DNA of 37,514 nucleotides. It comes from a virus (lineage: Duplodnaviria; Heunggongvirae; Uroviricota; Caudoviricetes). Within the stretch, counting starts at the first letter, position 1. Each line of letters begins with the position of its first letter. The DNA lies in the IMG/VR virus record IMGVR_UViG_2534681759_000011, one strand, 5' to 3'. Below, in pieces: positions 20,894 to 37,514 of the stretch. The notes under the pieces were generated by a model. That model did no database searches, had not been told where the DNA came from, and saw only the letters and a program-made list of their open reading frames with translations. The translations under genes were made by a program, and so were the position numbers.

Positions 20894-21297
20894 AGCTCTG
20901 GCCCACGCTGGGCGTCGCTTTCCTTCTGATTGCCGCATGGGGAACATCCATGCGTCTGTCGTGGTCGCTGGGCCGGGAGAACGCCAGAAACGAAGCGCAG
21001 GCCAGCACCCTGAAAAGTACCGTCGACACCCTGAATATCATCAGCGCCGGGGTACAGGATATGCAGCAGGTGCTGGCACAACTCCGCGTGGAAAATCAGC
21101 AACGCAATCAGGACGGAGAAGCCAGACGTGAACAGCTACGCAACGATATTGCAAAAGATGAATGCGCCCACGCTTTGCCTGATGCTCGTTTTACTGACAG
21201 GTTGCGCAGGCACGCTGAACGCGCCACGGCCAGCGCCGTCAGTCCGGCTTATACCGCAGACGCTGACCATACCGGTAACGCCTCCCCCCGTCCCTGA
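20890..21297 (+). CDS. lysB: LysB / Rz-like inner-membrane spanin component
   Basis: ATG overlaps the endolysin stop (ATGA); N-terminal transmembrane helix LWPTLGVAFLLIAAWG. Confidence 0.6.
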   Translation: MKLWPTLGVAFLLIAAWGTSMRLSWSLGRENARNEAQASTLKSTVDTLNIISAGVQDMQQVLAQLRVENQQRNQDGEARREQLRNDIAKDECAHALPDARFTDRLRRHAERATASAVSPAYTADADHTGNASPRP

Positions 21298-21902: not shown

Positions 21903-22530
21903 GGCATTCACCCGTGTGGATGAAACCTTTGAGGCCATCCGTGACAGCCTGAATCAGCAGGTCATCAATAACATCGCCAGAAAGCTGGCACAGGATTTAC
22001 GCCGCGCCCAGCAGGCACGTATCCGGTCACAGAAAGCGCCGGACGGGACCGCGTGGACACCTCGCAGACGCCGCGTAACCCGGATACAGGAGCGCATTCG
22101 CTTTATCTGGAATAACGAAGCACGCACGCTGAAAAACTGGCATCACGACACGGGGAAATACGGGCGAACCATTACCGGGTGGGATGAGGATAAAAACAAT
22201 ATCCGCACGTTTTACCGGGATGACATCGACCGTTTTCTGGAAATACGCACCCGGCGCATCAACCAGGACAGCACAAAGCGCGTCCCCATGTTCGTAAAAC
22301 TGCGCACCGCCCGCTACCTGAAAGCCCGTGCAGATGCTTCCGGTGTGACGGTGGGTTACAGCGGCGTGGCCGCACGTATTGCACGCGTTCATCAGTTCGG
22401 TGAGCGCGATCAGGTTGCGCCGGGCATTTTCACCGATTACCCGGTACGTGAGCTGCTGGGTATCAGTCAGGCAGATGAACGCCTGATTTATAACACGGTA
22501 CTGGGCCGGATTGCGGAGGCTGTACGGTGA
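21895..22530 (+). CDS. S: Tail completion / virion morphogenesis protein, gpS-like
   Basis: Position between R and V; start overlaps the R stop. Confidence 0.65.
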   Translation: MDKAFTRVDETFEAIRDSLNQQVINNIARKLAQDLRRAQQARIRSQKAPDGTAWTPRRRRVTRIQERIRFIWNNEARTLKNWHHDTGKYGRTITGWDEDKNNIRTFYRDDIDRFLEIRTRRINQDSTKRVPMFVKLRTARYLKARADASGVTVGYSGVAARIARVHQFGERDQVAPGIFTDYPVRELLGISQADERLIYNTVLGRIAEAVR

Positions 22531-23108
22531 GCGCAGAACTCATGCGACTGCTGAGCAACATCATCCGTACCGGGATCATCTCTGAAGTTGATGAGAAATC
22601 CTGGTGCGTGCGCGTTCGTAGCGGCGAACTGGAAACAGGCTGGCTGCGCTGGAACACCACGCGCGCGGGAGCCTTCAACGTGTGGCTTCCACCATCACCA
22701 GGCGAACAGGTGGTAATTGCCTGCATCGGCGGCAACCCTGAAACCGCCATGATAATTGGCAGTCTGTGGAGTGATGCCAATCCGGCACCCGGCAAAAACC
22801 TGAAAGAAATCGTGGTCAGCGCGCCGGATGGCGCGGTGTTCCGCTACGACGCAGACGCTGGCGCACTGAGCGCCAGCGGCATGAAAACAGCCACCCTGCA
22901 GGCATCCGTCAGCGTGACACTGGATACGCCCGTCGTGGAATGCACAAACCTTCTGAGAACAGCGACGCTTGACGTCACAAAAGGAGGAAAGATGAGCGGC
23001 AATATCACGCACAGCGGCGGCAGCTTCACCTCAAACGGCATCACAGTGCATACGCATAAACACGGCGGCGTTAAAGGTGGCAGCGATTCGACAGGAGGCC
23101 CGCAGTGA
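22527..23108 (+). CDS. V: Baseplate spike/assembly protein, P2 gpV family (193 aa)
   Basis: Position and size; Gly/Ser-rich C-terminus. Confidence 0.8.
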   Translation: MSAELMRLLSNIIRTGIISEVDEKSWCVRVRSGELETGWLRWNTTRAGAFNVWLPPSPGEQVVIACIGGNPETAMIIGSLWSDANPAPGKNLKEIVVSAPDGAVFRYDADAGALSASGMKTATLQASVSVTLDTPVVECTNLLRTATLDVTKGGKMSGNITHSGGSFTSNGITVHTHKHGGVKGGSDSTGGPQ

Positions 23109-23455
23109 CAACCCGCTACACAGGAATGAATCCGGACGGGACGGGAAACCTGAACGATATGGAGCACCTGAAACAGTCAGTCAGGGACATCCTGACCACC
23201 CCGCTGGCAAGCCGGGTTATGCGACGGGAATATGGCAGCCTTGTGCCTGATTTGATTGACGAACCCATGAATAACACCACGCGTCTGCAATGCATGAGTG
23301 CTGCCGTGATTGCGCTGACACGATGGGAACCCCGCATTGCCCTGGATGCCATCGACGTTGTCTGGAAAGCGGGAGGCCGCGCCGGGGTGACGTTGTCGGG
23401 CACTGTCATGCAGACCATGCAAAATGTTGAATTAACCATCACGCTGAGGGAGTAA
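23105..23455 (+). CDS. W: Baseplate wedge protein, P2 gpW family (116 aa)
   Basis: Size and position; remembered gpW similarity. Confidence 0.8.
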   Translation: MTTRYTGMNPDGTGNLNDMEHLKQSVRDILTTPLASRVMRREYGSLVPDLIDEPMNNTTRLQCMSAAVIALTRWEPRIALDAIDVVWKAGGRAGVTLSGTVMQTMQNVELTITLRE

Positions 23456-23457
23456 TC

Positions 23458-24354
23458 ATGCCTGCCGTTGACCTTGCCCAGTTACCGGAACCCGCCATCA
23501 TCGCGGAGCCTGATTTTGAGGCAATTCTGGCTGACACAAAGGCCATGATGATTGCGTCCTATCCTGCTGAACAGCGTGAAGCCGTCTCCGCCGCGCTGGA
23601 GCTGGAATCGGAACCCCTGAACGTTATCGCCCAGGCAACAGCGTTTCGTGAAATGCTGTTACGCCAGCGGATCAATGAGGGTGCACGCGCCTGCATGCTA
23701 AGCCACAGCGCCGGGACAGACCTGGACAACCTCGCGGGCAATATGAACACAAAGCGCCTGGTTATCACTCCGGCAACGGATACCACCGACGCAGTGATGG
23801 AAAGTGACACCTCGCTGAGACTGCGGGCGCAACGGGCGTATGACGGTCTGAGTGTTGCTGGCCCGTCAGGTGCATACGAGTATTTTGCACGCAGCGCCAG
23901 CGGTCTGGTACGCGACGCGCGGGCCATCAGTCCGTCTCCGGCAAATGTGACGGTTTCCATCCTGTCCACTGAAGGCGACGGCACAGCAACGGAGGCGTTG
24001 CTTAATACCGTTCGCGCCGTTCTGAATGCAGAGGATACCCGCCCGGTGGCCGACCGCCTGACCGTACAGAGTGCCAGAATCGTGACATGGCGGCTGAATG
24101 CAAAACTGTACTTTTACCCCGGCCCGGAATCCGAACCTATTCTGGCCGCGGCTGAATCGTCGTTCAGGAAGTGGCTGGCTGAGCAGGGGCTTATCGGTCA
24201 GGACGTGGCGTTGTCCGCCATTGCTGCCGCACTGCATGTGCACGGTGTGCAACGCGTGGAGATAATCGAACCCACACAGAATATGGCCATCAGCGACATA
24301 CAGGCGGCGCGCTGTGAGTCGTTCACCATCAGCGAAGGTGGGCGCAATGAGTAA
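23458..24354 (+). CDS. J: Baseplate protein J (298 aa)
   Basis: Size and position in the V-W-J-I-H order. Confidence 0.85.
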   Translation: MPAVDLAQLPEPAIIAEPDFEAILADTKAMMIASYPAEQREAVSAALELESEPLNVIAQATAFREMLLRQRINEGARACMLSHSAGTDLDNLAGNMNTKRLVITPATDTTDAVMESDTSLRLRAQRAYDGLSVAGPSGAYEYFARSASGLVRDARAISPSPANVTVSILSTEGDGTATEALLNTVRAVLNAEDTRPVADRLTVQSARIVTWRLNAKLYFYPGPESEPILAAAESSFRKWLAEQGLIGQDVALSAIAAALHVHGVQRVEIIEPTQNMAISDIQAARCESFTISEGGRNE

Positions 24355-24877
24355 TTCACTGTTACCACCATCAGCCAGCAGTTTCATGCGTTGTGCCGAA
24401 GCTGTCGGAACGCGCATTACAGACATCCCGGTAGACCTCAACACGCTGTGGTCGCCGGACACCTGCCCGGTGCACCTGCTGCCTTATCTCGCCTGGGCAT
24501 TTTCCGTTGACCGTTGGGATCGCAACTGGCCGGAAGAGGCAAAACGACAGGTGATTCGTGATGCATGGCTGATACACCGACACAAAGGGACCATCAGCGC
24601 ACTGCGCAGGGCCATTGAGCCGCTGGGATACCTCATTCGCGTGTCTGAGTGGTGGGAGTTCGGCGGAGAACCGGGAACATTTACCGTTGAAGTCGGCACA
24701 CTGGACAGTGGCGTGACGGAGGAAATGTATCTGGAAATGGAGCGGTTGATTGCTGATGCCCGCCCGGTCAGCCGCCACATGACAGGGCTGAATATCATTC
24801 AGGAGATCCCGGGAGATATTTTCGCGGCGGCAGCAACTTACGACGGTGAAGTCATTACCATTTATCCGGACGATTAA
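24347..24877 (+). CDS. I: Baseplate protein I
   Basis: ATG at 24347 overlapping the J stop; annotated ORF begins 33 nt upstream. Confidence 0.8.
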   Translation: MSNSLLPPSASSFMRCAEAVGTRITDIPVDLNTLWSPDTCPVHLLPYLAWAFSVDRWDRNWPEEAKRQVIRDAWLIHRHKGTISALRRAIEPLGYLIRVSEWWEFGGEPGTFTVEVGTLDSGVTEEMYLEMERLIADARPVSRHMTGLNIIQEIPGDIFAAAATYDGEVITIYPDD

Positions 24878-24879
24878 GC

Positions 24880-26439
24880 ATGAGTACCACAACACGTAAA
24901 TTTAAAACCGTTATCACCAATACGGGTGCCAAAAAATTAGCTCAGGCAGCCGCGCCAGATGGTAAGCCTGTCCGCCTGACTCATATGGCCGTGGGTGACG
25001 GCGGCGGCACTTTACCCTCGCCAGACAGTAAGCAGACCCGTCTGGTGCATGAGGTGTGGCGACACACTGTTAATCGCGTCTTCCTGGACGCAACACATCA
25101 GAACCGCATTATTGCGGAGCTGGTTGTTCCTCCAGAAACGGGCGGATTCTGGATCCGGGAAATTGGTGTGTTTGATGAGCACGGCGATTTAATCGCAGTA
25201 GGCAATACTGCCGAAAGTTACAAGCCAACCGTTGCCGAAGGGTCAGGACGTGCACAAACATTTCGCACCATTCTGACCGTATCCAGCACTGCCACTATGG
25301 CGCTTACCGTGGATAACACCATGGTAATGGCCACAGTGGATTACGTGGATGACAAACTGAAAGAGCATGAACAGTCACGACGTCACCCGGACGCCTCGCT
25401 GACCGCAAAAGGCTTTGTTCAACTTAGCAGCGCCACTAACAGCACATCTGAAACGCTGGCTGCGACACCTAAGGCTGTTAAGGCAGCATATGACCTGGCT
25501 AATGGCAAATACACCGCACAGGACGCAACCACTGCGCGGAAAGGGATAGTTCAGCTCAGTAGCGCCACTAACAGCACATCTGAAACGCTGGCTGCGACAC
25601 CTAAGGCTGTTAAGGCAGCATATGACCTGGCTAATGGCAAATACACCGCACAGGACGCAACCACTGCGCGGAAAGGGATAGTTCAGCTCAGTAGCGCCAC
25701 CAACAGCACGTCTGAAACGCTTGCGGCAACGCCAAAGTCTGTTAAGGCGGCATATGACCTGGCTAATGGCAAATACACCGCACAGGACGCTACCACTGCG
25801 CGAAAAGGGATAGTTCAGCTCAGTAGCGCCACTAACAGCACATCTGAAACGCTGGCTGCAACGCCGAAAGCAGTAAAGGCCGCATATGACCTTGCTAACG
25901 CAAAATATACCGCTCAGGACGCAACGACGGCACGAAAAGGGATAGTTCAGCTCAGTAGCGCCACTAACAGCACATCTGAAACGCTGGCTGCGACGCCAAA
26001 AGCTGTTAAGGCGGTAATGGATGAAACGAACAAGAAAGCGCCCTTAAACAGTCCTGCACTGACCGGAACGCCAACAACGCCAACTGCGCCAAAAGGGACT
26101 AATAATACTCAGATCGCAAGCACGGCTTATGTGATGGCCGCGATTGCCGCACTTGTAGACTCGTCGCCTGACGCACTGAATACGTTGAACGAGTTAGCGG
26201 CGGCGCTGGGAAACGACCCGAATTTTGCGACCACCATGACTAAAGCGCTTGCGGGTAAGCAACCGAAAGATGCCACCCTGACGGCGCTGGCCGGGCTTGC
26301 TACTGCGGCAGACAAGTTTCCGTATTTTACGGGGAATGATGTCGCCAGCCTGGCAACCCTGCAAAAGTCGGGCGGGATATTCTTGCGAAATCGACCGTTG
26401 CCGCTGTTATCGAATACCTCGGTTTACAGGAAACGGTAA
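24880..26439 (+). CDS. H: Tail-fibre protein H, constant N-terminal part; frame breaks near 26366
   Basis: N-terminus MSTTTRKFKTVITNTGAKKLAQAA… matches remembered P2 gpH; contains 132-bp tandem repeats; the conserved continuation KVGRDILAKSTVAAVIEYLGLQETVN is in the -1 frame from 26364. Confidence 0.75.
   Translation: MSTTTRKFKTVITNTGAKKLAQAAAPDGKPVRLTHMAVGDGGGTLPSPDSKQTRLVHEVWRHTVNRVFLDATHQNRIIAELVVPPETGGFWIREIGVFDEHGDLIAVGNTAESYKPTVAEGSGRAQTFRTILTVSSTATMALTVDNTMVMATVDYVDDKLKEHEQSRRHPDASLTAKGFVQLSSATNSTSETLAATPKAVKAAYDLANGKYTAQDATTARKGIVQLSSATNSTSETLAATPKAVKAAYDLANGKYTAQDATTARKGIVQLSSATNSTSETLAATPKSVKAAYDLANGKYTAQDATTARKGIVQLSSATNSTSETLAATPKAVKAAYDLANAKYTAQDATTARKGIVQLSSATNSTSETLAATPKAVKAVMDETNKKAPLNSPALTGTPTTPTAPKGTNNTQIASTAYVMAAIAALVDSSPDALNTLNELAAALGNDPNFATTMTKALAGKQPKDATLTALAGLATAADKFPYFTGNDVASLATLQKSGGIFLRNRPLPLLSNTSVYRKR
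25411..26010 (+). repeat. In-frame tandem repeat, 132-bp unit, about 4.5 copies, inside the tail-fibre shaft
   Basis: Repeated 44-aa unit ARKGIVQLSSATNSTSETLAATPKAVKAAYDLANGKYTAQDATT; unit starts at about 25411, 25543, 25675, 25807 and 25939. Confidence 0.85.
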
Positions 26440-27384
26440 ATCAGGCTTCTGGTGCATTACAGAAAAAACAGAACGGCGCAGATATTCCAGGAAAAGATAC
26501 CTTCACCAAAAATATTGGTGCCTGCCGCGCATATAGCGCATGGCTGAATATTGGTGGCGATAGTCAGACCTGGACAACCGCACAATTCATTTCGTGGCTG
26601 GAGAGTCAGGGGGCATTTAACCATCCTTACTGGATGTGCAAAGGCTCATGGGCTTATGCAAACAATAAGGTCATTACAGATACAGGTTGCGGAAATATTT
26701 GTCTTGCAGGTGCTGTGGTGGAAGTTATTGGCACTCGCGGCGCAATGACCATACGCGTTACTACGCCGAGTACATCCAGCGGTGGCGGAATTACTAACGC
26801 TCAATTCACCTATATTAATCATGGTGATGCTTATGCTCCTGGCTGGCGACGAGACTACAACACGAAAAACCAGCAGCCTGCATTTGCTTTAGGGCAAACA
26901 GGAAGCAGGGTTGCAAATGATAAAGCTGTTGGCTGGAACTGGAATAGCGGCGTTTATGATGCAGATATCAGTGGCGCATCGACATTAATCCTCCACTTTA
27001 ATATGAATGCGGGGAGTTGCCCTGCTGTACAGTTCCGCGTGAATTATAAAAACGGCGGTATCTTTTATCGTTCAGCGCGTGATGGTTATGGTCTTTGAAG
27101 CTAACTGGTCAGAGTTTTACACCACAACCCGCAAACCCTCTGCGGGGGATGTTGGTGCATATACGCAGGCAGAATGTAACTCAAGGTTTATTACAGGTAT
27201 TCGCCTGGGCGGTCTGTCATCTGTTCAGACATGGAATGGTCCCGGCTGGTCTGACAGGTCAGGTTATGTCGTTACGGGTTCAGTTAACGGAAACCGTGAT
27301 GAATTAATTGATACAACTCAGGCAAGGCCAATTCAGTATTGCATTAATGGAAGGTGGTATAACGCGGGGAGTATTCAATTATGA
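26370..27384 (+). pseudogene. Tail-fibre variable C-terminal segment, expressed orientation; reading frame broken
   Basis: Open in the -1 frame from about 26364 to 27098, then continues in another frame from 27079 to 27384 ending [13 protein letters not shown]; glycine-rich distal-fibre character. Confidence 0.5.
26407..26432. promoter_or_regulatory. gix/hix/cix-type recombination site (left inverted repeat of the invertible segment)
   Basis: TTATCGAATACCTCGGTTTACAGGAA; close to the remembered Mu gix consensus and an inverted copy of the site at 29336-29361; lies inside the tail-fibre reading frame. Confidence 0.75.
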
Positions 27385-27914
27385 TGCACTTAAAAACATT
27401 ACTGCTGGCAACCCTAAAACAAAAGAGCAATACCAGCTAACGAAACAATTTAACATCAAATGGCTTTATTCAGATGATGGAAAAAACTGGTATGAGGAAC
27501 AAAAGAACTTTCAGCCTGATACGTTGAAAATGGTCTATGACCGTAACGGCGTTATTATTTGTATTGAAAAGGATGTTTCAGCAATTAATCCAGTAAGGCG
27601 CAAGCGTCGTTGAATTACCTGATATTACAGCAAATCGCCGGGCTGATATTTCGGGTAAATGGATGTTCAAAGATGGCGTAGTGATAAAGCGAACTTATAC
27701 CGGGGAAGAGCAGAGGCAGCAGGCAGAGAATGAAAAGCAAAGCCTGTTGCAACTTGTCAGGGATAAAACCCAGTTATGGGACTCACAGCTACGGCTGGGC
27801 ATCATTTCCGACGAGAGTAAACAAAAATTAACAGAGTGGATACTCTTTGCGCAGAAAGTCGAATCTACAGACACTTCCAGCCTGCCAGTAACATTTCCCG
27901 AACAACCTGAATGA
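27381..27914 (+). pseudogene. Tail-fibre assembly chaperone, expressed orientation; split by frameshifts
   Basis: Pieces [25 protein letters not shown]… and …[22 protein letters not shown]… parallel the intact minus-strand paralogue but lie in different frames; the A-run at 27392-27396 and the region near 27592-27600 separate the frames. Confidence 0.5.
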
Positions 27915-27942
27915 GACAAGGCCCGATAGCGGGCCTTAATTT

Positions 27943-28470
27943 TTATTCAGGCTTTTGTGGCCATTCAGGATTTGCCGTATCCACACGGCTGACCAGAACA
28001 CTGTAGCGTTCCCATGCTTCCAGTCGTGTGCGCTCCTCGTCTGTTGCCATATTCAGCCTGGCAGCGCGTTCCAGTGGCTGGATGACTGATTCAGTTTCGG
28101 AAAGCAATGCGGCCTTTTGTGATTCGGCCTGTTGTTGCTGTTCGTCTGCTGTATAAATCCGCTTAACCACAGTTCCGTCCTTAAACATCCACTTCCCTGA
28201 ATCATCGGCACGACGATTGACTGTTATATCTGGAATCTCAACGACACTAAAGCCTTCGGGATTAAGCGTTGAGGCATCTTTGGTTATGGCAACAATAATA
28301 TTATTTTCGTCGTAAACAATCTTTATGGTGTCTTCCTGAAAGCTATTTACTTCCTCATACCAGTTTTTACCGTCTTCTGTATATAACCAGATAACATCAA
28401 AATTCTTTGTTAGCTGATATTGCTCTTTTGTTTTTGGATTTCCTGACTTAATATTTTTTAAATGCTGCAT
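27943..28470 (-). CDS. Tail-fibre assembly chaperone, alternative copy inside the invertible segment (175 aa, intact)
   Basis: [24 protein letters not shown]… typical of tail-fibre assembly proteins; silent in the present orientation. Confidence 0.8.
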
Positions 28471-28473
28471 AAT

Positions 28474-29335
28474 TTACACCTGTGCTACGTTATACCATGT
28501 GCCATTGATGTATTTTTGTATTGGTCTGAAGATGGCTTCATCATCGCCATCTACTTCACCAATGATTCTTAATCCGGTAATTGCGTGTCCGGCTTTTTCA
28601 TAACGACCACCACGCGCCATCAATTGAACAACTCGCGTACCCAGGCGAACATCTTTTACATAGCGTGAATCAAAATTCCCCCAGTTGCTGGGCTGTATCT
28701 GACCGTTAACAGAAAATATTACCGAGTTATCTGTATTTCGCTGGCTATAGAAATGCCATCCTGCCTCATCGCCTAACTCTGCAACTACTGGACGGGTTGA
28801 AGCACCCCATAAATTAAACGTTACATTCTTTGTGGAGGTGTTGGAGCTGGATAGCGAGATTTTTTTACATCACCTGCCTGAATGTTTTTAAAAGCAATAG
28901 CAACTCCATTCTGAAAGCGGAATACTCGCTGACTATTAGCGTAAACATCAAGAATACCGTCTCCATTCTGTTTAAATCCGGTATCATTATCACCAAGAAC
29001 AATAGAGCTACCACCTAACGCATTCGTCGTACCAACTCCAAGGCTGCCATTAATGACGGCATTAACAAGAATATTTAGTGCATCCCATTTCAGCGTCATC
29101 AGGTCTTTTGTTGTGGTGCCCTGGCGGCTTCTCCATTTGAAATATTCATTGCCGTTGTCGCCTGTTTCTAAACCAACATGAATGAATCAGTATCGCTGTC
29201 GGCATCATTTTTAAATCCAATCTTCGCCCAGTCAGTATTTCGAATCCAGGCAAGGATTGAGTCGTTTTCAAAAGTAAGCCCACCGGACAAGGTATCGCCA
29301 TTCTTTTGCACGGCGTTCCTGGCCCTGTTTACCGT
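28474..29335 (-). pseudogene. Alternative tail-fibre C-terminal segment (P2 H-like), promoterless and frameshifted
   Basis: Minus strand encodes LGLQETVNRA…GLTFENDSILAWIRNTDWAKIGFKNDAD…, …LETGDNGNEYFKWRSRQ…TLKWDALNILVNA… and a C-terminus INGTWYNVAQV, matching remembered P2 gpH, but in three frames; breaks near 29164-29180 and at the T7 run 28860-28866. Confidence 0.6.
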
Positions 29336-29361
29336 TTCCTGTAAACCGAGGTTTTAGATAA
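29336..29361. promoter_or_regulatory. gix/hix/cix-type recombination site (right inverted repeat)
   Basis: TTCCTGTAAACCGAGGTTTTAGATAA, near-identical to the remembered Mu gix sequence; immediately upstream of the invertase gene. Confidence 0.8.
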
Positions 29362-29415
29362 TGGCCGTTTCTGGCCTGCATGGCATGATTTGCGCTTTTG
29401 GACGGGAGATTCAGT

Positions 29416-30003
29416 GTGCTGATTGGCTATGTAAGGGTATCAACAAATGACCAGAATACAGACCTGCAACGAAACGCTCTTGTTTGTGCAGGATGTGAAC
29501 AGATATTTGAAGATAAATTAAGCGGGACAAAGACAGACCGACCGGGATTAAAACGCGCTTTAAAGCGCCTTCAAAAAGGTGACACGCTGGTTGTCTGGAA
29601 ACTGGATCGCCTCGGGCGAAGCATGAAACATCTGATTTCTCTCGTCGGGGAACTACGGGAGCGAGGGATTAATTTTCGCAGTCTGACCGACAGCATAGAT
29701 ACATCTTCTCCAATGGGGCGTTTTTTCTTCCACGTGATGGGGGCCCTGGCTGAAATGGAACGTGAATTAATTGTTGAACGTACACTGGCCGGACTGGCGG
29801 CAGCGCGCGCACGGGGGCGCACAGGCGGACGTCGACCGAAGCTGACAAAAGAACAGCATGAGCAAATAGCAAGGCTGATTAAAAACGGTCACGACAGAAA
29901 ACAACTGGCAATAATTTACGGCATTGGTATATCGACGATTTATCGTTACCACCCCGCAGGAGAACCAAGCGGAACAATTGAGAAGAGTCAGGAAACAAAA
30001 TAA
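29416..30003 (+). CDS. Serine DNA invertase, Gin/Hin/Cin/Pin family
   Basis: GTG start behind GGGAGA; N-terminus (M)LIGYVRVSTNDQNTDLQRNAL… with catalytic Ser; nearly matches remembered Mu Gin over the catalytic domain; C-terminal HTH. Confidence 0.9.
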   Translation: MLIGYVRVSTNDQNTDLQRNALVCAGCEQIFEDKLSGTKTDRPGLKRALKRLQKGDTLVVWKLDRLGRSMKHLISLVGELRERGINFRSLTDSIDTSSPMGRFFFHVMGALAEMERELIVERTLAGLAAARARGRTGGRRPKLTKEQHEQIARLIKNGHDRKQLAIIYGIGISTIYRYHPAGEPSGTIEKSQETK

Positions 30004-30031
30004 CCGCTAATCTGACCATTAGCGGTTTTTG
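30004..30031 (+). terminator. Rho-independent terminator after the invertase gene
   Basis: Hairpin CCGCTAAT-N6-ATTAGCGG followed by TTTTT; sits between convergent genes. Confidence 0.6.
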
Positions 30032-30038
30032 TGTTAAA

Positions 30039-30533
30039 TCAGAACATCCCTTTAACTGAACTGGCCGCGCTGTTAAGAGATGATGTCACCTTATCTTTGA
30101 AGCCGGACAGCATATCGCTGAATGATGAGGATTGCAGGCGCTCCCGCAAATCCTCATCACAGCGTTCAAGTGTCAGTGAAAATTCTATCTTTTTCGCCTT
30201 ACCGTAGCGATCAAACTCGGAACGGGTCGTATTCGTTCCGGTCAGGACATACATGCCGTAAATCTGCCCGACACCATCAATCAGAGGCCAGGGGCGTCCT
30301 GTATATGCCTGCGTGGTCAGCAGCGAAAGCGACACTTCGCCACCTGTAATTTCAGGATAAAGCACGCCAGAAAGCACGATGCGATCATCACCTGCACCGA
30401 TATACTGCCAGCTTGCTGAGCGGTTTACGCGCTCATTTTTCACATGCCGCCAGCTTTTGTTTTGCTGTAACTGCTGATGCGGCAATGTGCGCAGCTCAAA
30501 AACAAACATGCCGTAGATCATCATCATGGCCAT
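30039..30533 (-). CDS. U: Tail protein U, P2 gpU family (164 aa)
   Basis: Size and position downstream of the tape measure gene. Confidence 0.75.
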   Translation of the reverse strand: MAMMMIYGMFVFELRTLPHQQLQQNKSWRHVKNERVNRSASWQYIGAGDDRIVLSGVLYPEITGGEVSLSLLTTQAYTGRPWPLIDGVGQIYGMYVLTGTNTTRSEFDRYGKAKKIEFSLTLERCDEDLRERLQSSSFSDMLSGFKDKVTSSLNSAASSVKGMF

Positions 30534-30539
30534 GACTCC

Positions 30540-33383
30540 TCAATCTTTATCGTAAAAACTGCCACGTCCGGCACGGGCGCGCCGTTCCATTTCTGCCCTG
30601 ACCATTTCACCGACCAGTTTCGCCAGTTCGCGGGGATTCTGTGTAACAACGTTATGCAGATGAACATGAATTTCACCGCCAAATCCGGAGGCAACAGGCT
30701 CCCGGTTACGGGAATTTGCAGGAACTGATGCCACTGGCGATCGTATAGCCTCCGCCACCGGGCGGGAGCTGGCCGCAACAACAGGGACCAGCGCCGGAGG
30801 CAGCGGAGCCGGAACCACGGGTGTGATAGTAATTGCGGGGGCAGGCTTACTGACCTGCGCAATCTTCCGCTCCTGCCACTCCCCACGAACAGCAAGTGCG
30901 CGGGGCAGGTTCTTAAAGACAATATCACCGGGGCCAATGCGTTTTTTCGTCTCATCAACCAGCTTACCTGTGTTATCAGCAATTTTGCTGAGTCTGCGTA
31001 GCGTACCGGTATTGCTGTCTGTGAGTGGTTTGTTGTCTTTGGGTTTATCACCTCCGGTGCCATTGCCATTTTCCACAGGCTTCGGCGGATTGATTTTCGC
31101 CAGGTCCCCCTGAAGCAAGGCAACCTTGTCCTGAAGAATGGCCGCACGCTGTGCGTCTTCGATTTTCTTGCGCGCCCTTTCAGCTTCATCCGGAAGGACG
31201 CCAAGTTTTTCAAGTATCCACGCCAGCGTATCCAGTAGCATTTTTGCAGGTGTCAGAACAAGCTGTAACGCACCGCCAAGAACGTTACCGAATATCTCGC
31301 CAGCACTGGTACATTTATCCAGCGTTTCCTTACTGGACTCCATCGGTGACAGCAGCGATTTAAACCAGTTAAACACCTGGCTGATCCCGCTTCCGATTGC
31401 GTCAAAAACAGGGCCAAACCGTTCAAAGGTTTCGCGCAACGGAGCCAGCCGTTCCATAATCCCACTGAACACCCCTGCATAAAACGCCTTGATGGGTTCC
31501 CAGTATTTCCAGATGAGAACCGCCGCAGCCACAAACGCAGCAGCAATCAATCCGACCGGACTGAACAGCGCCCCGATAGCGCCTCCCAGTAACGAAATGG
31601 AACCCGTCACCATTCCCCATAATGCAGGCAGAACCCTGACAACATTCAATGATCCGGTCAGGAGGGAAAAACCAAGACGCAGTTTTGCCAGTGGGCCAGC
31701 AAGCACACCAATAGCCAGCGACAACGAGCCTATGGTTGCAGTCATTGCCAGCAGAGCACCGCCTGCAACCAGTAGCTGGCGCGTCAGTGCCGGATGGGCC
31801 TGCGCCAGCGCCGTCACCTTCGATACCACCCGCGTGAGCCACTGCGTGACAGAACGCTGCGGACCGTCAATCAGATCTGCAATGCGGATGCGCACCCCTT
31901 CCCATGCACTGCCGAGTGATTTCAGATCGCCGTCAAGGTTGTTGGCCATAACCTTTGCTGTGCGTTCAGCCTCACCGCGCGCGCCTTCAAGTTCTTTTCT
32001 CAGTTTGGGTAAGGAGCCGTCACCTGCCGCATCAACGAGGGCCATAAATGATGTGAAAGCCTCTTCTCCGGCAATATCCTTAAAGAACGATACCCGGTCA
32101 ACTTCCCCGTATTTGCGGGTGGCTTTATAAAGGTCAGCCAGCAGATCTTCCATCGGGCGCATTTTGCCGTTCGCGTCAGAGACGGACACGCCCAGCTCTT
32201 TCAGCGCCTCTGCTGCTGCCTTTGGCGGTGATGCCAGACGAGCCAGGCTGGCACGCATTGCCGTCCCGGCATCACTCCCTCTGATACCCATATTCGCCAG
32301 CACGCCAGCCATCGCTGCAGCCTGCTCCAGCGATATTCCCAGCTTACCCGCCACCGGACCGGCATATTTCATGGTTTCGCCCAGTGCGCGAAGGTCAGTG
32401 TTGGTACGGGTAAACGCTGCAGTGAGTGTGTCACCGACCCGGTCCATCTGGTCAGCAGAAAGGCCGAACTGCGTCAGGATATTTGAGCCAATATCCGCCG
32501 TCTCGCCGAGATCCATACCGCCAGCCGTTGCCATGCTCAACACGCCGGGAAGCGCAGCCTGAATGGCCTGCGGTGTGAAGCCAGCCATTGCAAGAAATGC
32601 CTGCCCACTGGCGGCATCGCCTGCGGTGAACTGCGTTTCAGAGCCAAGTTTTAACGCCTGCTCACGCAGCGCCTTAAACTGCGGGCTGTTCTGGTCGATT
32701 CGCGTCAGCGCCTGAACGCGGGACATCTCTTTCCCGAACCCGATTGCGGGCTGCAAAAAACGCCCGGCAGCATAGCCGCCCGCCGCTGCCGCACCAATTG
32801 CCAGTACACCACCTGTTTTCAGTTTTCCCGCTGTTTCCTGCGCACGCGAATACCGCTCACGCGCCCGCGTTACACGCGTAAGCGACTGCCGTTCGCGTTC
32901 AAGCTGGTTGTTGTACTGTTCGGTGCGCCTGATGGCCTGTTGAATGGTGTTATCGCTGCCTGTCAGGGAAATGCCGTGGCGTTTCAGCTCTCCGCCAAGC
33001 TCCCGCATTTTCTGAATTTCCCGTATGCGCGATTCATTCAGGCGTTCAAGCCGGGTGCTTAACTGCTGCATCAGCTTTTGTTGCTTTTCGCTGAGCACTG
33101 TACCCGTGCGTTGTAACTGATTAAGGGCGTTAAGCTGGCGTCGTGCTTTCACGATACCCGCATCCGCTTTACTGACAGCGTCGCGGGCGCGCTCAAATGA
33201 ACGCGCCTGACGCTCGAGATTTTTGATCGCCCCCTGCGTTCGCTGGATGGAGTCACCAAACTGCCCCATCAGGCGGCGGGCGTTTTCGGCAGGCCGGGTC
33301 AGCCTGTCAACGGCGCTGAAAGCGACCCGGATATCAAGAGTCTTCATTGTCTGCATTCCCGCTGCGAAGTGCCGCCCGCTCAC
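30540..33383 (-). CDS. T: Tail tape measure protein, P2 gpT family (947 aa)
   Basis: Long, Ala/Gly-rich, helical with hydrophobic central segments; uninterrupted 2.8-kb reading frame. Confidence 0.85.
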   Translation of the reverse strand: MSGRHFAAGMQTMKTLDIRVAFSAVDRLTRPAENARRLMGQFGDSIQRTQGAIKNLERQARSFERARDAVSKADAGIVKARRQLNALNQLQRTGTVLSEKQQKLMQQLSTRLERLNESRIREIQKMRELGGELKRHGISLTGSDNTIQQAIRRTEQYNNQLERERQSLTRVTRARERYSRAQETAGKLKTGGVLAIGAAAAGGYAAGRFLQPAIGFGKEMSRVQALTRIDQNSPQFKALREQALKLGSETQFTAGDAASGQAFLAMAGFTPQAIQAALPGVLSMATAGGMDLGETADIGSNILTQFGLSADQMDRVGDTLTAAFTRTNTDLRALGETMKYAGPVAGKLGISLEQAAAMAGVLANMGIRGSDAGTAMRASLARLASPPKAAAEALKELGVSVSDANGKMRPMEDLLADLYKATRKYGEVDRVSFFKDIAGEEAFTSFMALVDAAGDGSLPKLRKELEGARGEAERTAKVMANNLDGDLKSLGSAWEGVRIRIADLIDGPQRSVTQWLTRVVSKVTALAQAHPALTRQLLVAGGALLAMTATIGSLSLAIGVLAGPLAKLRLGFSLLTGSLNVVRVLPALWGMVTGSISLLGGAIGALFSPVGLIAAAFVAAAVLIWKYWEPIKAFYAGVFSGIMERLAPLRETFERFGPVFDAIGSGISQVFNWFKSLLSPMESSKETLDKCTSAGEIFGNVLGGALQLVLTPAKMLLDTLAWILEKLGVLPDEAERARKKIEDAQRAAILQDKVALLQGDLAKINPPKPVENGNGTGGDKPKDNKPLTDSNTGTLRRLSKIADNTGKLVDETKKRIGPGDIVFKNLPRALAVRGEWQERKIAQVSKPAPAITITPVVPAPLPPALVPVVAASSRPVAEAIRSPVASVPANSRNREPVASGFGGEIHVHLHNVVTQNPRELAKLVGEMVRAEMERRARAGRGSFYDKD

Positions 33384-33497
33384 GCCAGCTAACCACTTCG
33401 CCGGGCGTCATCATGAAGATTTCGGCGGGCGACCAGTTAAAAATAACGGCAATATCTGCCACAAAGTCTTCTATGTGCTCAAAGCACACAACCGTGA

Positions 33498-33863
33498 TCA
33501 GGCTTCCGTCGCCTGTTCGTTCTTCCCGCCAGAGTCCGCACCGCTCAAAAAATTTACGGCAACCACACATAACTGAATAAAGTCACGGGATGCCATTTTT
33601 TTGATCGTCACTTCATCCAGTCGCGGTGATGTCACGCGTGACAGCAGCGTAAACATGGATTCCGCTTTCAGATTCAGCACATCAGACAACGACAAATCTC
33701 GCAGAGATCCAGCCTGCTCAATAGCTCCGGTGATCTCCACATACGTGATTTTTTCGCCGCCTCGCTCAATTGGTTGGGTAAGTTTTACGCCACGCTCACT
33801 GGTTTCTTTCACAGTGTCAGCAACGACCGTGTTTTCGGTATCGATGTTTTTCGTCTCTTTCAT
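33498..33863 (-). CDS. E: Tail assembly chaperone E; the E' product extends to 33334 by programmed -1 frameshift
   Basis: E frame ends …VNFLSGADSGGKNEQATEA; the -1 frame entered at the TTTTTTG slip site continues KFFERCGLW… to a stop at 33334, overlapping the T start. Confidence 0.75.
   Translation of the reverse strand: MKETKNIDTENTVVADTVKETSERGVKLTQPIERGGEKITYVEITGAIEQAGSLRDLSLSDVLNLKAESMFTLLSRVTSPRLDEVTIKKMASRDFIQLCVVAVNFLSGADSGGKNEQATEA
33545..33551 (-). promoter_or_regulatory. Slippery heptamer T-TTT-TTG for programmed -1 ribosomal frameshifting (E to E')
   Basis: Minus-strand sequence AAATTTTTTGAG; same slip site as described for P2 E/E' and analogous to lambda G/GT. Confidence 0.6.
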
Positions 33864-33917
33864 CAGGAAACTCCTTTCAGTCAGAGGCGACGCACTGCGC
33901 CGCCTGCATATTACTTA

Positions 33918-34430
33918 TCAGCCAAGCCCAAGCGCGGAACGGATGCGATCGGGCACAATGTCCTTGCCGTCCTTCCGGTAAATGAAGTTCAGCAGGTCAA
34001 TCTCCCACAACGGGCGATCGTTAACACTCAGCTTGTAGTAGGTGTTTTTAATGGCGTAAGTGTGTGATGTGGCTTCGCCCTGTTTGGCTTCCCCCATATC
34101 AATTTCCGTCACACGTCCGCGCATTTCGACTTCATACAGGTCGCTTTCTGCATCGGTGTAGTATTCACCCGCAAAACGCAGCAGCGTGCCGTCAATCGTG
34201 CCGCCATACTTCAGGAACAGCTCACGAACTGCGCCCCCCATGACAAAGCTCGCATCAAGCGCGGAGTCGTCCAGACCGAGATCAATACTTACCGCACCCA
34301 TCATGCCACCACCCCGGTAGCTGTCGGTTTTGCGCGTCAGCTTAGGCAGAGTGACGGACGTCACCTTACCCACTTCGTTTTCACCATCCACAAACAGCGT
34401 AAAAAAGCGAAGATGTTTTGGCACAGCCAT
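33918..34430 (-). CDS. FII: Tail tube protein, P2 gpFII family (170 aa)
   Basis: Size and position after the sheath gene. Confidence 0.85.
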   Translation of the reverse strand: MAVPKHLRFFTLFVDGENEVGKVTSVTLPKLTRKTDSYRGGGMMGAVSIDLGLDDSALDASFVMGGAVRELFLKYGGTIDGTLLRFAGEYYTDAESDLYEVEMRGRVTEIDMGEAKQGEATSHTYAIKNTYYKLSVNDRPLWEIDLLNFIYRKDGKDIVPDRIRSALGLG

Positions 34431-35614
34431 CAGGCACCTCCCAGCACCGCAAATGCAGGTTCAAAGTATTCATCAGTAAACGTCTGGTAAAGCTCCATGT
34501 CTTCCAGTGGCGGAACAGGCGTATATTTGTAGCGAATACGCACACGCCCCTGACGTAAATCCGTGGTGCTGTTATCCACCACGTCATACCAGCACTCCGC
34601 GCCAATCAGTTTCCCGGCAGTAACCAGTGAATCCAGTTTTGCCCTGATGGCACTGATAACATCCTTCACGTTCGCAGGCGTCAGTGGACTGTCGATGGTT
34701 TCAAACTGCGCTTCTGCAATTGAATCAGCCAGCACCTGTGCGGTTCGGGTATACACCTCAAAGATGTAGGCGTTCGTTTCCGGTGTGCGGTTGCCCCAGA
34801 AGCGGAACCCGTTGCGACGAATAATGGTCGTGATTTCTTTGTTGTTGAGGCTGTTGGCATCACTGTCTTCGGCCTGCAACGACCAGAACACATGCCTGGA
34901 CATTCCCAGCACATTTTTAACAGGAACGTTGGACAGCGATTTGTGCCAGCCCTGCTCATGGTCAATGTACGCACGAAGGCCGCACGCATAGGCAGGCGCG
35001 GGGAACGTTTCGTTTTTGCCACTTTTCGGGTTGTAGGCGATGAAGTCCGGCCATAAGAGCATCACCTCACGTTCGTTGAATTTCTGGCGGTAGGTAATCG
35101 CCTCAGCCATCGTGTTACAGCCGTGACATGAGGCATACACAAACGCGCGCAGTTTACCCGCAATCACGCACAGGGATTTTGTTACCGCCTCCGTGTCCAG
35201 CTCCGGCGCGGCCAGAATACGCGGACGGTATCCGATGCTTTCATCCTGCTCTGCAACAAGCAGCGCATACATCCCCGTATAGCTGCCGTCAGATTCAGAA
35301 CCACCGATAACCAGTTGATCCTGCGTTTTTCCGTCTTCTTCTTTGTGTTCAGCCACGCGAACGACGATCACCTTTGTGCTCACCTGGTCTGCGATGGCCT
35401 TAAGCGCACGATAAAGCGTCCCCGTTGTCCCGCATTTTCCCAGCACGTCATTGACGCGGGTCAGCAGTGTGGGCTTGTTCAGCGGGAACAGCTTCGCGTC
35501 CGCATCATCCGCCGTTGCCACGATACCGATAACGCTGGAATCAACATCGTTAATCGCTGTTACCAGGTCGGTATTTTCCGTAACACGGGCACCATGAAAA
35601 CGAGTTTCACTCAT
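34430..35614 (-). CDS. FI: Contractile tail sheath protein, P2 gpFI family (394 aa)
   Basis: Size and remembered gpFI similarity. Confidence 0.9.
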   Translation of the reverse strand: MSETRFHGARVTENTDLVTAINDVDSSVIGIVATADDADAKLFPLNKPTLLTRVNDVLGKCGTTGTLYRALKAIADQVSTKVIVVRVAEHKEEDGKTQDQLVIGGSESDGSYTGMYALLVAEQDESIGYRPRILAAPELDTEAVTKSLCVIAGKLRAFVYASCHGCNTMAEAITYRQKFNEREVMLLWPDFIAYNPKSGKNETFPAPAYACGLRAYIDHEQGWHKSLSNVPVKNVLGMSRHVFWSLQAEDSDANSLNNKEITTIIRRNGFRFWGNRTPETNAYIFEVYTRTAQVLADSIAEAQFETIDSPLTPANVKDVISAIRAKLDSLVTAGKLIGAECWYDVVDNSTTDLRQGRVRIRYKYTPVPPLEDMELYQTFTDEYFEPAFAVLGGA

Positions 35615-35771
35615 AGCTTCAGCCCCTTGTATCCGTTAAATGATTCGGCAACAATCATCACCCACCACGCGCGTAATCTCACCCCTGCGCCGTTCTCCCG
35701 CCACGGCGACAACAAAAAGCAGTAACCCCCTCCGCACGCACATGCGACCATGCCGCACAGGGAGGGAGCAG

Positions 35772-36881
35772 ATGACCGACACCACCATGCAATTGCTCAG
35801 TCAGGGCACAGACCCCGTAAAAATGCCGGATTTTGATATTCTCGCGGAGGGTAAAACGCTGTCAGGCGTGGCAGAGCGCCTGATGAGCCTGTCACTGACC
35901 GACAACCGGGGATTTGAGGCGGACCAGCTCACCATCACGCTGGATGATGCGGATGGTCAGTTGCTGCTACCGCCACGGGGCGCGCGCCTGACGGTTCTCA
36001 TTGGCTGGAAAGGAGAACCGCTGACAGAAAAAGGCACTTACATTGTTGATGAAATCGCTCACGAAGGACCGCCGGACAGGCTGACTGTTTCAGCCAGAAG
36101 CGCAGATTTTCGGGATGAATTTAACGTTAAACGTGAGGTGTCCTGGCATGATGTGACCGTTGAGCGTGTGGTATCCGCCATCGCTCATCGGTATGGTCTG
36201 AAACCGCAAATCAGCGAAATGCTGATGGATATCGAAATCGACCACGCCGACCAGACCGAAGAAAGCGACATGTCCTTCCTTACGCGCATGGCGGAAATGC
36301 TGGGCGCAATCACCACGGTAAAAAGCGGCAATCTGTTATTCATCATGCCCGGCGGTGGCGTGAACGCACAGGGCCAGCCGTTGCCATCGTTCGCCATCAC
36401 ACGCAGCAGCGGCGATCGCCATCAGTTCCGCATTGCTGACCGCGAAGCGTATACGGGGGTACGCGCTTACTGGCTTGATCTTAATTACGGGAAAAAGAAA
36501 AAAGTCAGCGTGAAACGCCGCAAACCGCCAAAACCGAAAAAAGAGAAAAGCAGCAGCCGTGAAGGTGATTATATGGAAGGCGCGGAAGGCAATGTGTTTG
36601 TGTTACGCAAGACTTATCAGAACGAGCAGGCAGCAAGACGCGCAGCGGCGGCAAAGTGGCAACAACTACAACGCGGAGCCGCATCATTCTCCATCACGCT
36701 GGCACGTGGACGAGCAGAACTCTACCCCGAAATGCATGGCACGGTAACAGGATTTAAAAGCGAGATTGATAATCAGGACTGGATTATTGCAAAAGCCGGG
36801 CACACCATTGATAACAGCGGCTTTACCACGCAGCTTGAGCTTGAGGCAAAAATCCCGGAATGGATAGCGGAAACAGAGTGA
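35772..36881 (+). CDS. D: Tail protein D, P2 gpD family
   Basis: ATG at 35772 behind GGGAGGGAG; annotated ORF begins 132 nt upstream in frame; divergent from FI. Confidence 0.8.
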   Translation: MTDTTMQLLSQGTDPVKMPDFDILAEGKTLSGVAERLMSLSLTDNRGFEADQLTITLDDADGQLLLPPRGARLTVLIGWKGEPLTEKGTYIVDEIAHEGPPDRLTVSARSADFRDEFNVKREVSWHDVTVERVVSAIAHRYGLKPQISEMLMDIEIDHADQTEESDMSFLTRMAEMLGAITTVKSGNLLFIMPGGGVNAQGQPLPSFAITRSSGDRHQFRIADREAYTGVRAYWLDLNYGKKKKVSVKRRKPPKPKKEKSSSREGDYMEGAEGNVFVLRKTYQNEQAARRAAAAKWQQLQRGAASFSITLARGRAELYPEMHGTVTGFKSEIDNQDWIIAKAGHTIDNSGFTTQLELEAKIPEWIAETE

Positions 36882-36923
36882 GCAACTTAGAATAGCGGCA
36901 GCACCACGTTAAGGGAGGTCGCT

Positions 36924-37184
36924 ATGTTCCGTTGTCCGCTTTGTGGCGCATCTGCCCGTATCCGCACCAGTCGTCCGGAAAATGATTCAAACACCGTGCG
37001 GCAAAAGTATTACCAGTGTAACAACCTGGAATGCGGCGTATGCTTCTCAACACTGGAAGCTTTCCATAAATTCACATCGAAACACGCCTCCGGCGTTCAC
37101 TCATCAGAAGGTATCCCGTGGCATGAGCTGCCAGCTTCACACAGGGGAAACAATCAGATGAGTTTGCCTTTACCTCAGAATTAA
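36924..37184 (+). CDS. ogr: Ogr/Delta-family zinc-finger late-gene transcriptional activator (86 aa)
   Basis: MFRCPLCGASARIRTSR…YYQCNNLECGVCF: Cys4 zinc-finger arrangement of Ogr; RBS GGGAGG. Confidence 0.85.
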   Translation: MFRCPLCGASARIRTSRPENDSNTVRQKYYQCNNLECGVCFSTLEAFHKFTSKHASGVHSSEGIPWHELPASHRGNNQMSLPLPQN

Positions 37185-37373
37185 CAGGCAGAATTGCCGG
37201 AGTAACAAAAAAGCGATAGATTACGTGCGGGTGCCTTTCGGCTGATGGTCGGAGGGAATACCCGAAGGCCGGATGTGGAAAGGCCCCGGAAAACATTTCT
37301 GTTTAACCGAGGCCCTAACCCGTCAACCTAGCAAGTGATAGGTTAGCGCCTCTCCAACAAAGGAGCAAGCGCT

Positions 37374-37514
37374 ATGTCGCAAAAATCGCTTACGGCCATC
37401 ACGTTCTGCGTGACGGTAATCCTCATCATCTGGATGCTGCACGGTTCGCTGTGTGAAATACGGATGAGCTTCTGGGGAGCGGAGTTTGCGGCGTTCTTAC
37501 AGTGTAAGCAGTAA
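37374..37514 (+). CDS. Hok/Gef-family type I toxin (46 aa)
   Basis: MSQKSLTAITFCVTVILIIWMLHGSLCEIRMSFWGAEFAAFLQCKQ: one transmembrane helix followed by the Hok hallmark SLCEIR; RBS AAGGAG; GC-rich structured leader 37200-37373; below the ORF-track length threshold. Confidence 0.7.
   Translation: MSQKSLTAITFCVTVILIIWMLHGSLCEIRMSFWGAEFAAFLQCKQ

Follow-up and report, generated by a model that had tools for sequence, protein, structure and literature searches.

The tail genes of phage P2 form the F operon (pF-FI-FII-E-E'-T-U-D), which is followed by ogr, and the late genes are co-directional with D as the last gene of the operon, as the initial annotation of the DNA described here correctly stated. 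Co-directional organization was likewise observed for Fels-2, 186, Dagavirus, Ralstonia phage RS-AB1, Tigrvirus, Baylorvirus and Vhmlvirus. Fels-2 (Felsduovirus) resembles the present locus in combining a P2-like tail module with a Gin-type invertase and, between H and FI, a fibre segment that can invert, but it differs in being fully co-directional. A second layout, with FI–U inverted, is displayed by the annotations of P88 and Shae_phiSM and by SEN4, KSP20 and Kp4848-1. This arrangement is already known from deposited, annotated and ICTV-classified phage genomes; literature searches returned no explicit description of the FI–U inversion, and "known" refers here to the deposited annotations. 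The inverted layout is functional, since P88 and PhiSM can be induced and form plaques (PMC5285337, PMC6456863).

Gene organization of the window

The stretch of DNA analysed here (the window, 37,514 nucleotides) is, as judged from its nucleotide identity, a Xuanwuvirus (P88-like, Peduoviridae) prophage. Positions 28500-37514 share 95–97% nucleotide identity with P88, P884B11, Shae_phiSM, 500465-2 and PhiR44_2 over 83–93% of the query, and the early region is 93–95% identical to Xuanwuvirus across the matched 56–77%. By ICTV convention a genus is delimited at about 70% or more nucleotide identity and a species at about 95%. The gene calls of the initial annotation agreed with the open reading frames and Pfam domains of the window, which place FI, FII, E/E', T and U on the minus strand and V to H, the invertase, D and ogr on the plus strand:

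22527-26439, plus strand: V to H
26407-29361: invertible tail-fibre segment, gix-like 34-nt inverted repeats at both ends
29416-30003, plus strand: serine DNA invertase of the Gin/Hin/Cin type (Resolvase 1.5e-50, HTH_7 1.8e-13)
29994-30035, core 30002-30027, both strands: two-way intrinsic terminator hairpin (10-bp stem, 6-nt loop)
30039-30533, minus strand: U, gpU tail protein, at the end of the inverted operon (Phage_P2_GpU 1.5e-38)
30540-33347, minus strand: T, gpT tape-measure protein (PhageMin_Tail 7.2e-59)
33498-33863, minus strand: E, gpE (Phage_TAC_7, weak match of 0.0053, below the cut-off)
33863 down to 33334, minus strand: E+E', gpE+E' made by -1 frameshift (E' frame, Phage_P2_GpE 1.7e-12)
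33918-34430, minus strand: FII, gpFII tail tube (Phage_tube 7.5e-47)
34430-35614, minus strand: FI, gpFI tail sheath, at the head of the inverted operon (Phage_sheath_1, Gp18_domIII_N, Phage_sheath_1C)
35615-35771: FI/D spacer of 157 bp between the divergent FI and D
35772-36881, plus strand: D, gpD, baseplate hub/tail protein (Phage_GPD about 1e-16)
36924-37184, plus strand: ogr, zinc-finger late activator type (Ogr_Delta 5.1e-14)

The P2-type structural gene set is complete in the window, with V, W, J, I, H, FI, FII, E/E', T, U, D and ogr all present. The internal order FI-FII-E-E'-T-U of the P2 F operon is retained, as is its E/E' -1 frameshift signal, with a P2-type slippery TTTTTTG at 33545-33551 and both E and E' pieces annotated in P88. 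Compared with P2, FI–U occupies the strand opposite to V–H and D-ogr, with protein identities of 33–49%, and D is neither downstream of U nor co-transcribed with it; instead D lies divergent from FI with its own upstream region and heads a separate D-ogr unit rather than closing the F operon. U, in turn, is convergent with the invertase. The inversion of a 5.6-kb FI–U block relative to P2, and the divergence of FI and D from the 157-bp spacer, both put forward in the initial annotation, are thus supported. At the protein level, gpU is 99% identical to that of P88 and 46% to P2 U, gpD is 99% identical to P88 D and 49% to P2 D, and FI is 47% identical to P2 FI and 56–71% to its counterparts in SEN4, KSP20 and Kp4848-1. 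The T frame is open up to 33383, with the P88-equivalent ATG at 33347, and the invertase frame is open from 29398, with a likely start at 29416-29419; its P88 homologue is annotated as a DNA invertase of 588 nt.

All 13 compared genes have the order and strands of P88, and across Xuanwuvirus (P88, P884B11, Citrobacter Shae_phiSM, 500465-2, PhiR44_2) V through ogr is identical in order and strands, the differences being only in cargo, IS insertions and variable tail-fibre parts. Senquatrovirus SEN4, Reipivirus Kp4848-1 and Serratia phage KSP20 share the inverted FI–U and the dyad-bearing FI/D spacer, with FI and D 56–74% identical, and SEN4 carries no invertase, its tail-fibre assembly gene converging directly on U.

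Distribution of the two orientations

The inverted layout was observed in 80/80 IMG/VR loci (the best 80, D 62–100% identical) and, among the best 80 loci from GTDB species representatives, in each of the 62 whose D reaches 61% identity or more, a sample of 80 loci per scan from which rare reversions could escape. The GTDB hosts include Salmonella, Serratia, Erwinia, Pantoea, Klebsiella and Xenorhabdus, as well as Photorhabdus, Providencia, Morganella, Yersinia, Hafnia and Edwardsiella. At D identities of 53% or lower, the 13 classifiable GTDB loci were all co-directional and the other five have U directly upstream of D, so that the orientation splits cleanly at about 55–60% D identity in the sampled loci. 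In addition, 6.9 kb over both junctions formed a single co-linear match in 1358 of the 5426 complete E. coli genomes (~25%). The initial annotation had listed a lineage-typical arrangement among its alternatives and had proposed a synteny comparison with relatives; the orientation proved to be conserved in P88, Shae_phiSM, SEN4, KSP20, Kp4848-1 and the IMG/VR and GTDB loci, and the feature is therefore simply how the Xuanwuvirus/Senquatrovirus/Reipivirus branch of Peduoviridae is organized. This branch is a large and old one of P2-like phages of Enterobacterales; FI–U is inverted relative to V–H and D-ogr in every member examined, and the co-directional phages all fall outside it.

In neighbour-joining trees of FI and of D, which were simple trees of about 24 taxa without support values, the inverted loci formed one clade nested among the co-directional ones, indicating a single old inversion. 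Two character states alone give no polarity, and the divergent order might instead be ancestral for Peduoviridae with the P2-type order derived from it. This is very unlikely, as the inverted loci are one nested clade and the sampled outgroup genera, comprising Ralstonia, Burkholderia, Mannheimia and Vibrio phages, are all co-directional; in Mu-like phages the co-linearity of sheath, tube, tape measure and hub is also the rule, which likewise speaks against an ancestral divergent order.

Block boundaries and the resident invertase

The gix-like repeats of the tail-fibre segment lie at 26407-26440 and 29328-29361 (repeat I1, 94% complementary), and their sequence, TTATCGAATACCTCGGTTTACAGGAAAC, resembles the Mu gix site. 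Coding pieces for the tail fibre and for tail-fibre assembly are present on both strands between them. Compared with the near-identical ETEC H10407 prophage, this segment of the window shows six single-base indels, which are frameshifting. The gix-flanked segment 26407-29361 is the only substrate of the invertase, the FI–U block not being one, and the resident Gin-type invertase has no part in the FI–U inversion. As the initial annotation had reported, no gix-like or other inverted repeat occurs at the block boundaries (30004-30039 and 35615-35771) other than the terminator itself. This hairpin (inverted repeat I12) has T-runs on either side and scored as a terminator on both strands, and the invertase and U transcription units converge on it, the convergence having been noted earlier too. 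Repeats I13, I14 and I23, which pair sites near both ends of the block, were rejected as inversion repeats, being located within coding regions, 17–19 nt long, 82–84% matched and off the breakpoints. Examination of the FI–U block as a Gin/Hin-type invertible segment revealed no flanking crossover sites and a single orientation across the clade.

These observations bear on whether the block was turned recently, or in a programmed manner, in this prophage by the resident Gin-type invertase or another recombinase, as the adjoining invertase gene and the exact reversal of the block relative to P2 might suggest. Such an event is exceedingly improbable, since the boundaries lack inverted repeats, the gix pair flanks the tail-fibre segment only, and the orientation is constant in all 142 retrieved relatives and the 1358 E. 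coli genomes. Moreover, most inverted-type relatives, such as SEN4, carry no invertase, whereas Fels-2 and two prophages (L158 and L167) possess one and are co-directional, and flipping the block back would leave U unconnected to D and would not bring pF into any sensible place. Invertase carriage is independent of the FI–U inversion because Fels-2 has an invertase and is nevertheless co-directional, and the tie to carriers of Gin-like invertases implied by the initial annotation did not hold; its view that the inversion is old and was not made by the resident invertase did.

Misassembly beside the invertible segment, also raised in the initial annotation, deserves almost no credence. The six indels make local consensus problems plausible within the tail-fibre segment, but between 29400 and 31400 only one substitution separates the window from the H10407 prophage, and both junctions recur in independent finished genomes and in isolated phage genomes, with the 6.9 kb across them co-linear in the E. 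coli genomes counted above.

The FI/D spacer and the proposed origin of the layout

The spacer between FI and D contains the following features, in which the promoter boxes, the transcription starts and the Ogr dependence are predictions based on conservation and on the parallels offered by P2 and 186:

35615-35771: divergent FI/D control region, predicted bidirectional Ogr-dependent late promoter (conserved blocks)
35654-35659, minus strand: GATGAT, -10 box predicted for leftward FI transcription, with the predicted start near 35647
35694-35711, centre 35702.5: Ogr/Delta-type activator dyad TCT-N12-ACA (spacer alignment)
35746-35751, plus strand: GACCAT, -10 box predicted for rightward D transcription, with the predicted start near 35758
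35759-35767, plus strand: Shine-Dalgarno sequence of D, GGGAGGGAG

A dyad-anchored consensus of the spacers from 35 non-redundant relatives (less than 80% identical) exhibited conserved blocks amid otherwise unconserved sequence. The clade consensus of the dyad is gTTGTC-N10-GACAAC, that is TGT-N12-ACA, from which the window departs by one mismatch (TCT), and the dyad was present in 148/148 inverted-type spacers at 74–88 nt from the FI ATG. In the 35-sequence consensus a conserved xA..AT on the FI side occupies 43.5–48.5 nt left of the dyad centre and a conserved aA..aT on the D side lies 43.5–48.5 nt to its right, the latter preceded by a conserved CGCGCGC block. The FI-proximal box and its spacing also occur in co-directional phages, where the D-side box is absent or unconserved; in their pF regions most loci with a clear dyad have it 76–83 nt from the FI ATG, and its far side consists of terminators or unrelated sequence. 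In P2 itself an Ogr-type dyad precedes the FI ATG by about 83 nt, and the candidate site of the window, with its one mismatch, is equally far from the FI ATG as the sites of P2 and 186.

An exact search of the window for TGT-N12-ACA gave no match in the FI/D spacer, because the half-site of the window is TCT. A sigma-70 consensus scan gave no promoter in the spacer either, which is uninformative since activator-dependent late promoters are expected to give none. The extended motif GTTSTN12ACAAC was found at only two places in the window, the FI/D spacer and the divergent P/O spacer (16530-16551), and its chance estimate is partly circular, as the motif was derived from these two sites; in the P/O spacer, too, the half-site is TCT (GTTCT-N12-ACAACAAAAGC). 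A one-mismatch extended dyad at 20961-20982, in the lysis gene, was taken as a chance occurrence, being coding and having no -10 boxes at the expected distances.

The geometry of these elements matches that of described late promoters. The P2 dyad is centred at 3071.5, and 55.5 nt separate this point from the pP start (3016) on one side and from the pO start (3127) on the other. In 186 the annotated B-protein binding site is the equivalent of the dyad of the window; the mapped pJ start lies 56.5 nt from its centre, and pJ has the same geometry as the predicted FI promoter. As in P2 pP/pO, a single dyad is situated midway between two divergent late units, with starts about 55.5 nt to each side of its centre, actual in P2 and predicted in the window. 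The P2 pair serves packaging and head genes, and the clade is predicted to carry a second copy of this logic serving FI–U and D-ogr. A single dyad equidistant from two outward-facing predicted core promoters was found in the window and in the 35 relatives, suggesting that one activator site probably drives both FI–U and D-ogr.

A single inversion in the common ancestor is the simplest history of the layout. One break would have fallen between U and D and the other immediately before the pF activator site, carrying the late promoter pF along with FI. The activator site would then lie midway between FI and D and be usable by both, because the Ogr-type site is a dyad, and we infer that the clade-specific D-side -10 element lets the same site drive the two units. 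Firing leftward, it would transcribe FI-FII-E-T-U as far as the bidirectional terminator that the upstream operon or invertase also uses, and firing rightward, D-ogr, in the manner in which the single site of P2 serves the divergent pP and pO.

The same layout could have arisen had the FI–U or the D-ogr module been imported from another phage lineage and inserted in the opposite orientation by chance, as phage genomes are mosaic and the G–FI region is a known cargo hotspot, occupied by fun(Z) in P2 and by the invertase in the window. This origin is unlikely, given that FI, FII, U, D, V, W, J and I are similarly diverged from P2 (about 42–61%), that the FI and D trees are congruent within the clade and have the same sister relation to enterobacterial co-directional phages, and that the FI ATG and the dyad have retained the spacing seen in P2 and 186. 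We regard it as highly likely that minus-strand FI–U is the fixed architecture of an old P2-like branch, established by one ancestral inversion and probably served by a shared-dyad promoter. With somewhat less assurance, the balance leans towards co-option of the palindromic Ogr site in both directions after the inversion of pF-FI-U, which would have created a second pP/pO-like promoter and placed D-ogr under direct Ogr control.

The layout itself is of small discovery value, being carried by roughly a quarter of the complete E. coli genomes, and its orientation should not be marked as an error by annotators; the divergence of FI and D is a reliable marker separating this branch from P2-, 186- and Fels-2-type phages. 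What is newly proposed here, on sequence conservation and analogy, is the conserved Ogr-type dyad with putative outward -10 boxes in the FI/D spacer, a testable case of one activator site for two divergent late operons beyond pP/pO. If the prediction is true, D would be uncoupled from the sheath operon, with a possible positive-feedback loop on the activator via D-ogr, the symmetric conserved spacer would represent a natural promoter capture by inversion, and the spacer would be a clean synapomorphy of a Peduoviridae sub-branch spanning Xuanwuvirus, Senquatrovirus and Reipivirus.

Gene layout and identity of the prophage

The gene calls of the initial annotation, and its placement of the FI-U block of tail genes (FI, FII, E/E', T and U, 35614 down to 30039) on the opposite strand, were confirmed in full by the open reading frames, domain matches, spacer and terminator of the window, with the following features:

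22527-26439, plus strand, V to H
about 29416-30003, plus strand, serine invertase
30039-30533, minus strand, U (Phage_P2_GpU, 1.5e-38)
30540-33347/33383, minus strand, T (PhageMin_Tail, 7e-59)
33498-33863, minus strand, E (open reading frame)
end at 33334, minus strand, E', by a -1 shift at the P2-type slippery TTTTTTG, 33545-33551 (Phage_P2_GpE, 1.7e-12)
33918-34430, minus strand, FII (Phage_tube)
34430-35614, minus strand, FI (sheath domains)
35772-36881, plus strand, D (Phage_GPD)
36924-37184, plus strand, ogr (Ogr_Delta)

A 157-bp spacer separates the divergent genes FI and D, and a hairpin at 30002-30027, between the stop codons of the invertase and U, scores as an intrinsic terminator both ways. 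The inverted-repeat search of the window detected no inverted repeat at either boundary of the block, as first noted. Compared with the P2 F operon, one defining feature is lost, the co-transcription of D downstream of U; the order FI-FII-E-E'-T-U and the frameshift signal are kept, and a putative Ogr site upstream of FI is present with one mismatch (TCT-N12-ACA).

Escherichia phage P88, Xuanwuvirus P884B11, Citrobacter phage Shae_phiSM, 500465-2 and PhiR44_2 exhibit 95-97% identity to the right-hand 9 kb and also match the early region, and the 13 window proteins in the tblastn survey showed identical order and strands. Judged by its sequence, the window is a complete P88-like prophage (Xuanwuvirus, Peduoviridae); identity, gene content and gene order all place it in Xuanwuvirus. 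In the database records of P88 and Shae_phiSM, too, the baseplate genes, invertase and D are annotated on one strand and sheath to U on the other, and the layout is functional, since both P88 and PhiSM can be induced and form plaques (PMC5285337, PMC6456863). Product names in the Shae_phiSM record (OR565851.1) are one gene out of register, with 'late control gene D protein' standing on the sheath and 'ogr/Delta-like zinc finger' on D. The PhiSM virions were described in 2019 as siphovirus-like with non-contractile tails (PMC6456863), although the genome encodes sheath and tube. A Xuanwuvirus prophage whose D is 98% identical to that of the window was also observed on the 226-kb contig NZ_JBQPOM010000071.1, from an assembly that bears the name of a Firmicute (Vagococcus sp. 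WN89Y) but is probably contaminated or mislabelled.

Spread and origin of the inverted FI-U block

The inverted layout reaches beyond Xuanwuvirus: it is shared by Salmonella phage SEN4 (Senquatrovirus), which has no invertase and whose sheath and D are 56% and 64% identical, by a fragment of Serratia phage KSP20 and by Klebsiella phage Kp4848-1 (Reipivirus). Six aligned D proteins served as the query for scans of IMG/VR and then of one genome per bacterial species, with the best 80 loci kept from each. All 80 best IMG/VR loci (D 62-100% identical) carry FI-U opposite to D-ogr, and also opposite to J, I and H where those genes are present. Among the best 80 species-representative loci, those with D at least 61% identical were all of the inverted type (62/62). 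At D identities of at most 53%, the 13 loci that could be classified were all co-directional, and in the remaining 5 U immediately precedes D. The inverted type occurs in hosts across the Enterobacterales, including Salmonella, Citrobacter, Enterobacter, Klebsiella, Kosakonia, Serratia, Erwinia, Pantoea, Pectobacterium, Brenneria, Edwardsiella, Hafnia, Yersinia, Providencia, Morganella, Xenorhabdus and Photorhabdus. By contrast, P2, Fels-2, 186, Dagavirus, Ralstonia RS-AB1, Tigrvirus phi52237, Mannheimia Baylorvirus and Vibrio Vhmlvirus are co-directional. Unusual tail-gene orders were seen in Yersinia sp. HM-2024 (J and I within 1.6 kb upstream of D) and in a Mannheimia phage, locus L090 (tape-measure gene upstream of V, not between E and U).

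The lineage-typical arrangement raised in the initial annotation thus describes the block, which is conserved in P88, Shae_phiSM, SEN4, KSP20, Kp4848-1, the best 80 IMG/VR loci and the 62/62 species-representative loci. Neighbour-joining trees built from FI and from D both group the inverted loci in a single clade that sits inside the co-directional phages, and the branching within this clade agrees between the two trees. The simplest reading of these sequences is a single old inversion in the ancestor of the inverted branch, the P2 gene order being the ancestral state because the outgroups are co-directional. The arrangement is already visible in deposited annotations from 2009 onwards; literature searches found no paper spelling out the FI-U inversion or the shared-dyad spacer.

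Misassembly, the other option raised, is excluded, because a 6.9-kb query spanning both junctions (29300-36200) gave a single co-linear match covering at least 80% in 1358 of the 5426 complete E. coli genomes. Many copies in E. coli genomes are probably defective, because IS100 or IS30 insertions lie in the tail sheath or tape-measure region of several otherwise near-identical prophages (H1/H2, H11/H12, H99, H105-H108).

The invertase has no role in the FI-U inversion, an option raised at the outset. Its crossover sites, a recognisably gix-like 34-nt inverted repeat pair (26407-26440 and 29328-29361, 94% complementary), flank only the variable tail-fibre segment, and the invertase is sporadic among inverted-type loci and present also in co-directional Fels-2 and loci L158 and L167. 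The 2.95-kb invertible segment holds two tail-fibre assembly genes and alternative C-terminal parts, P2-H-like (93% nucleotide identity) and P88-like. The near-identical prophage of ETEC H10407 has intact fibre genes, and against it the window shows six frameshifting indels of one or two bases (26361 -A; 27092 +T; 27391 -A; 27594 +T; 28868 -T; 29169-29170 +TA). All of them fall between 26361 and 29170, within this segment or next to it, whereas 29400-31400 differs by one substitution only. The indels break H (stop at 26439, inside the left gix site), both variable fibre parts (split across frames) and one assembly gene, a pattern that fits errors in a consensus built from reads of mixed orientation, or local decay.

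The FI/D spacer and a predicted bidirectional late promoter

Aligned FI/D spacers of the clade display a few conserved blocks within otherwise free-running sequence, and the central one is gTTGTC-N10-GACAAC, i.e. a TGT-N12-ACA dyad, the consensus of the Ogr/Delta/B site in P2, P4 and 186. Its counterpart ahead of the 186 sheath gene is annotated as the site that the B protein binds. An exact TGT-N12-ACA search missed the dyad of the window because it is a TCT variant, and the same variant (GTTCT-N12-ACAACAAAAGC) occurs in the P/O divergent spacer. The extended motif has only these two exact occurrences in 37.5 kb, though it was derived from them and the chance estimate is partly circular. The elements are:

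16468-16622, P/O divergent spacer, TCT-N12-ACA dyad at 16532-16549
35692-35713, FI/D dyad, GTTCTCCCGCCACGGCGACAAC
complement of 35654-35659, minus strand, predicted leftward -10, GATGAT
35746-35751, plus strand, predicted rightward -10, GACCAT

In the scaffold ORF, the first ATG (16589) precedes the predicted start of transcription, and the start in the P88 annotation, 33 nt further on (about 16622), fits better. In two loci (L078/L079) the FI/D dyad is GTTCTC-N10-GAGAAC, with both half-sites symmetrically changed (TCT...AGA), which hints at co-variation with their own Ogr protein.

The distance between the FI ATG and the dyad centre is 74-88 nt in 148 inverted-type spacers and 76-83 nt in P2, 186 and most other co-directional phages with a clear dyad, and this likeness indicates that pF, the late promoter of the FI operon, moved together with FI. 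In a dyad-anchored comparison of 35 non-redundant spacers (under 80% identical), outward-facing -10-like hexamers (xA..AT) were observed on both sides, 43.5-48.5 nt from the dyad centre, and transcription is predicted to start about 55.5 nt either side of it, near 35647 and 35758. The P2 pP/pO pair has the same geometry (starts 3016 and 3127, each 55.5 nt from centre 3071.5), and the 186 pJ start, 56.5 nt from its site centre, agrees. The far side of the dyad, as seen from FI, holds terminators or unrelated sequence in co-directional phages, so the predicted D-side core promoter appears specific to the inverted clade.

The working model, drawn from sequence and analogy, is that one dyad would serve FI-U and D-ogr in both directions: the inversion would have set the palindromic activator site beside D, a new -10 element would have allowed it to fire both ways, and D would thereby have been uncoupled from the sheath operon, with D-ogr placed under late control. 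This putative bidirectional promoter would be a small, testable addition to an otherwise known lineage architecture.
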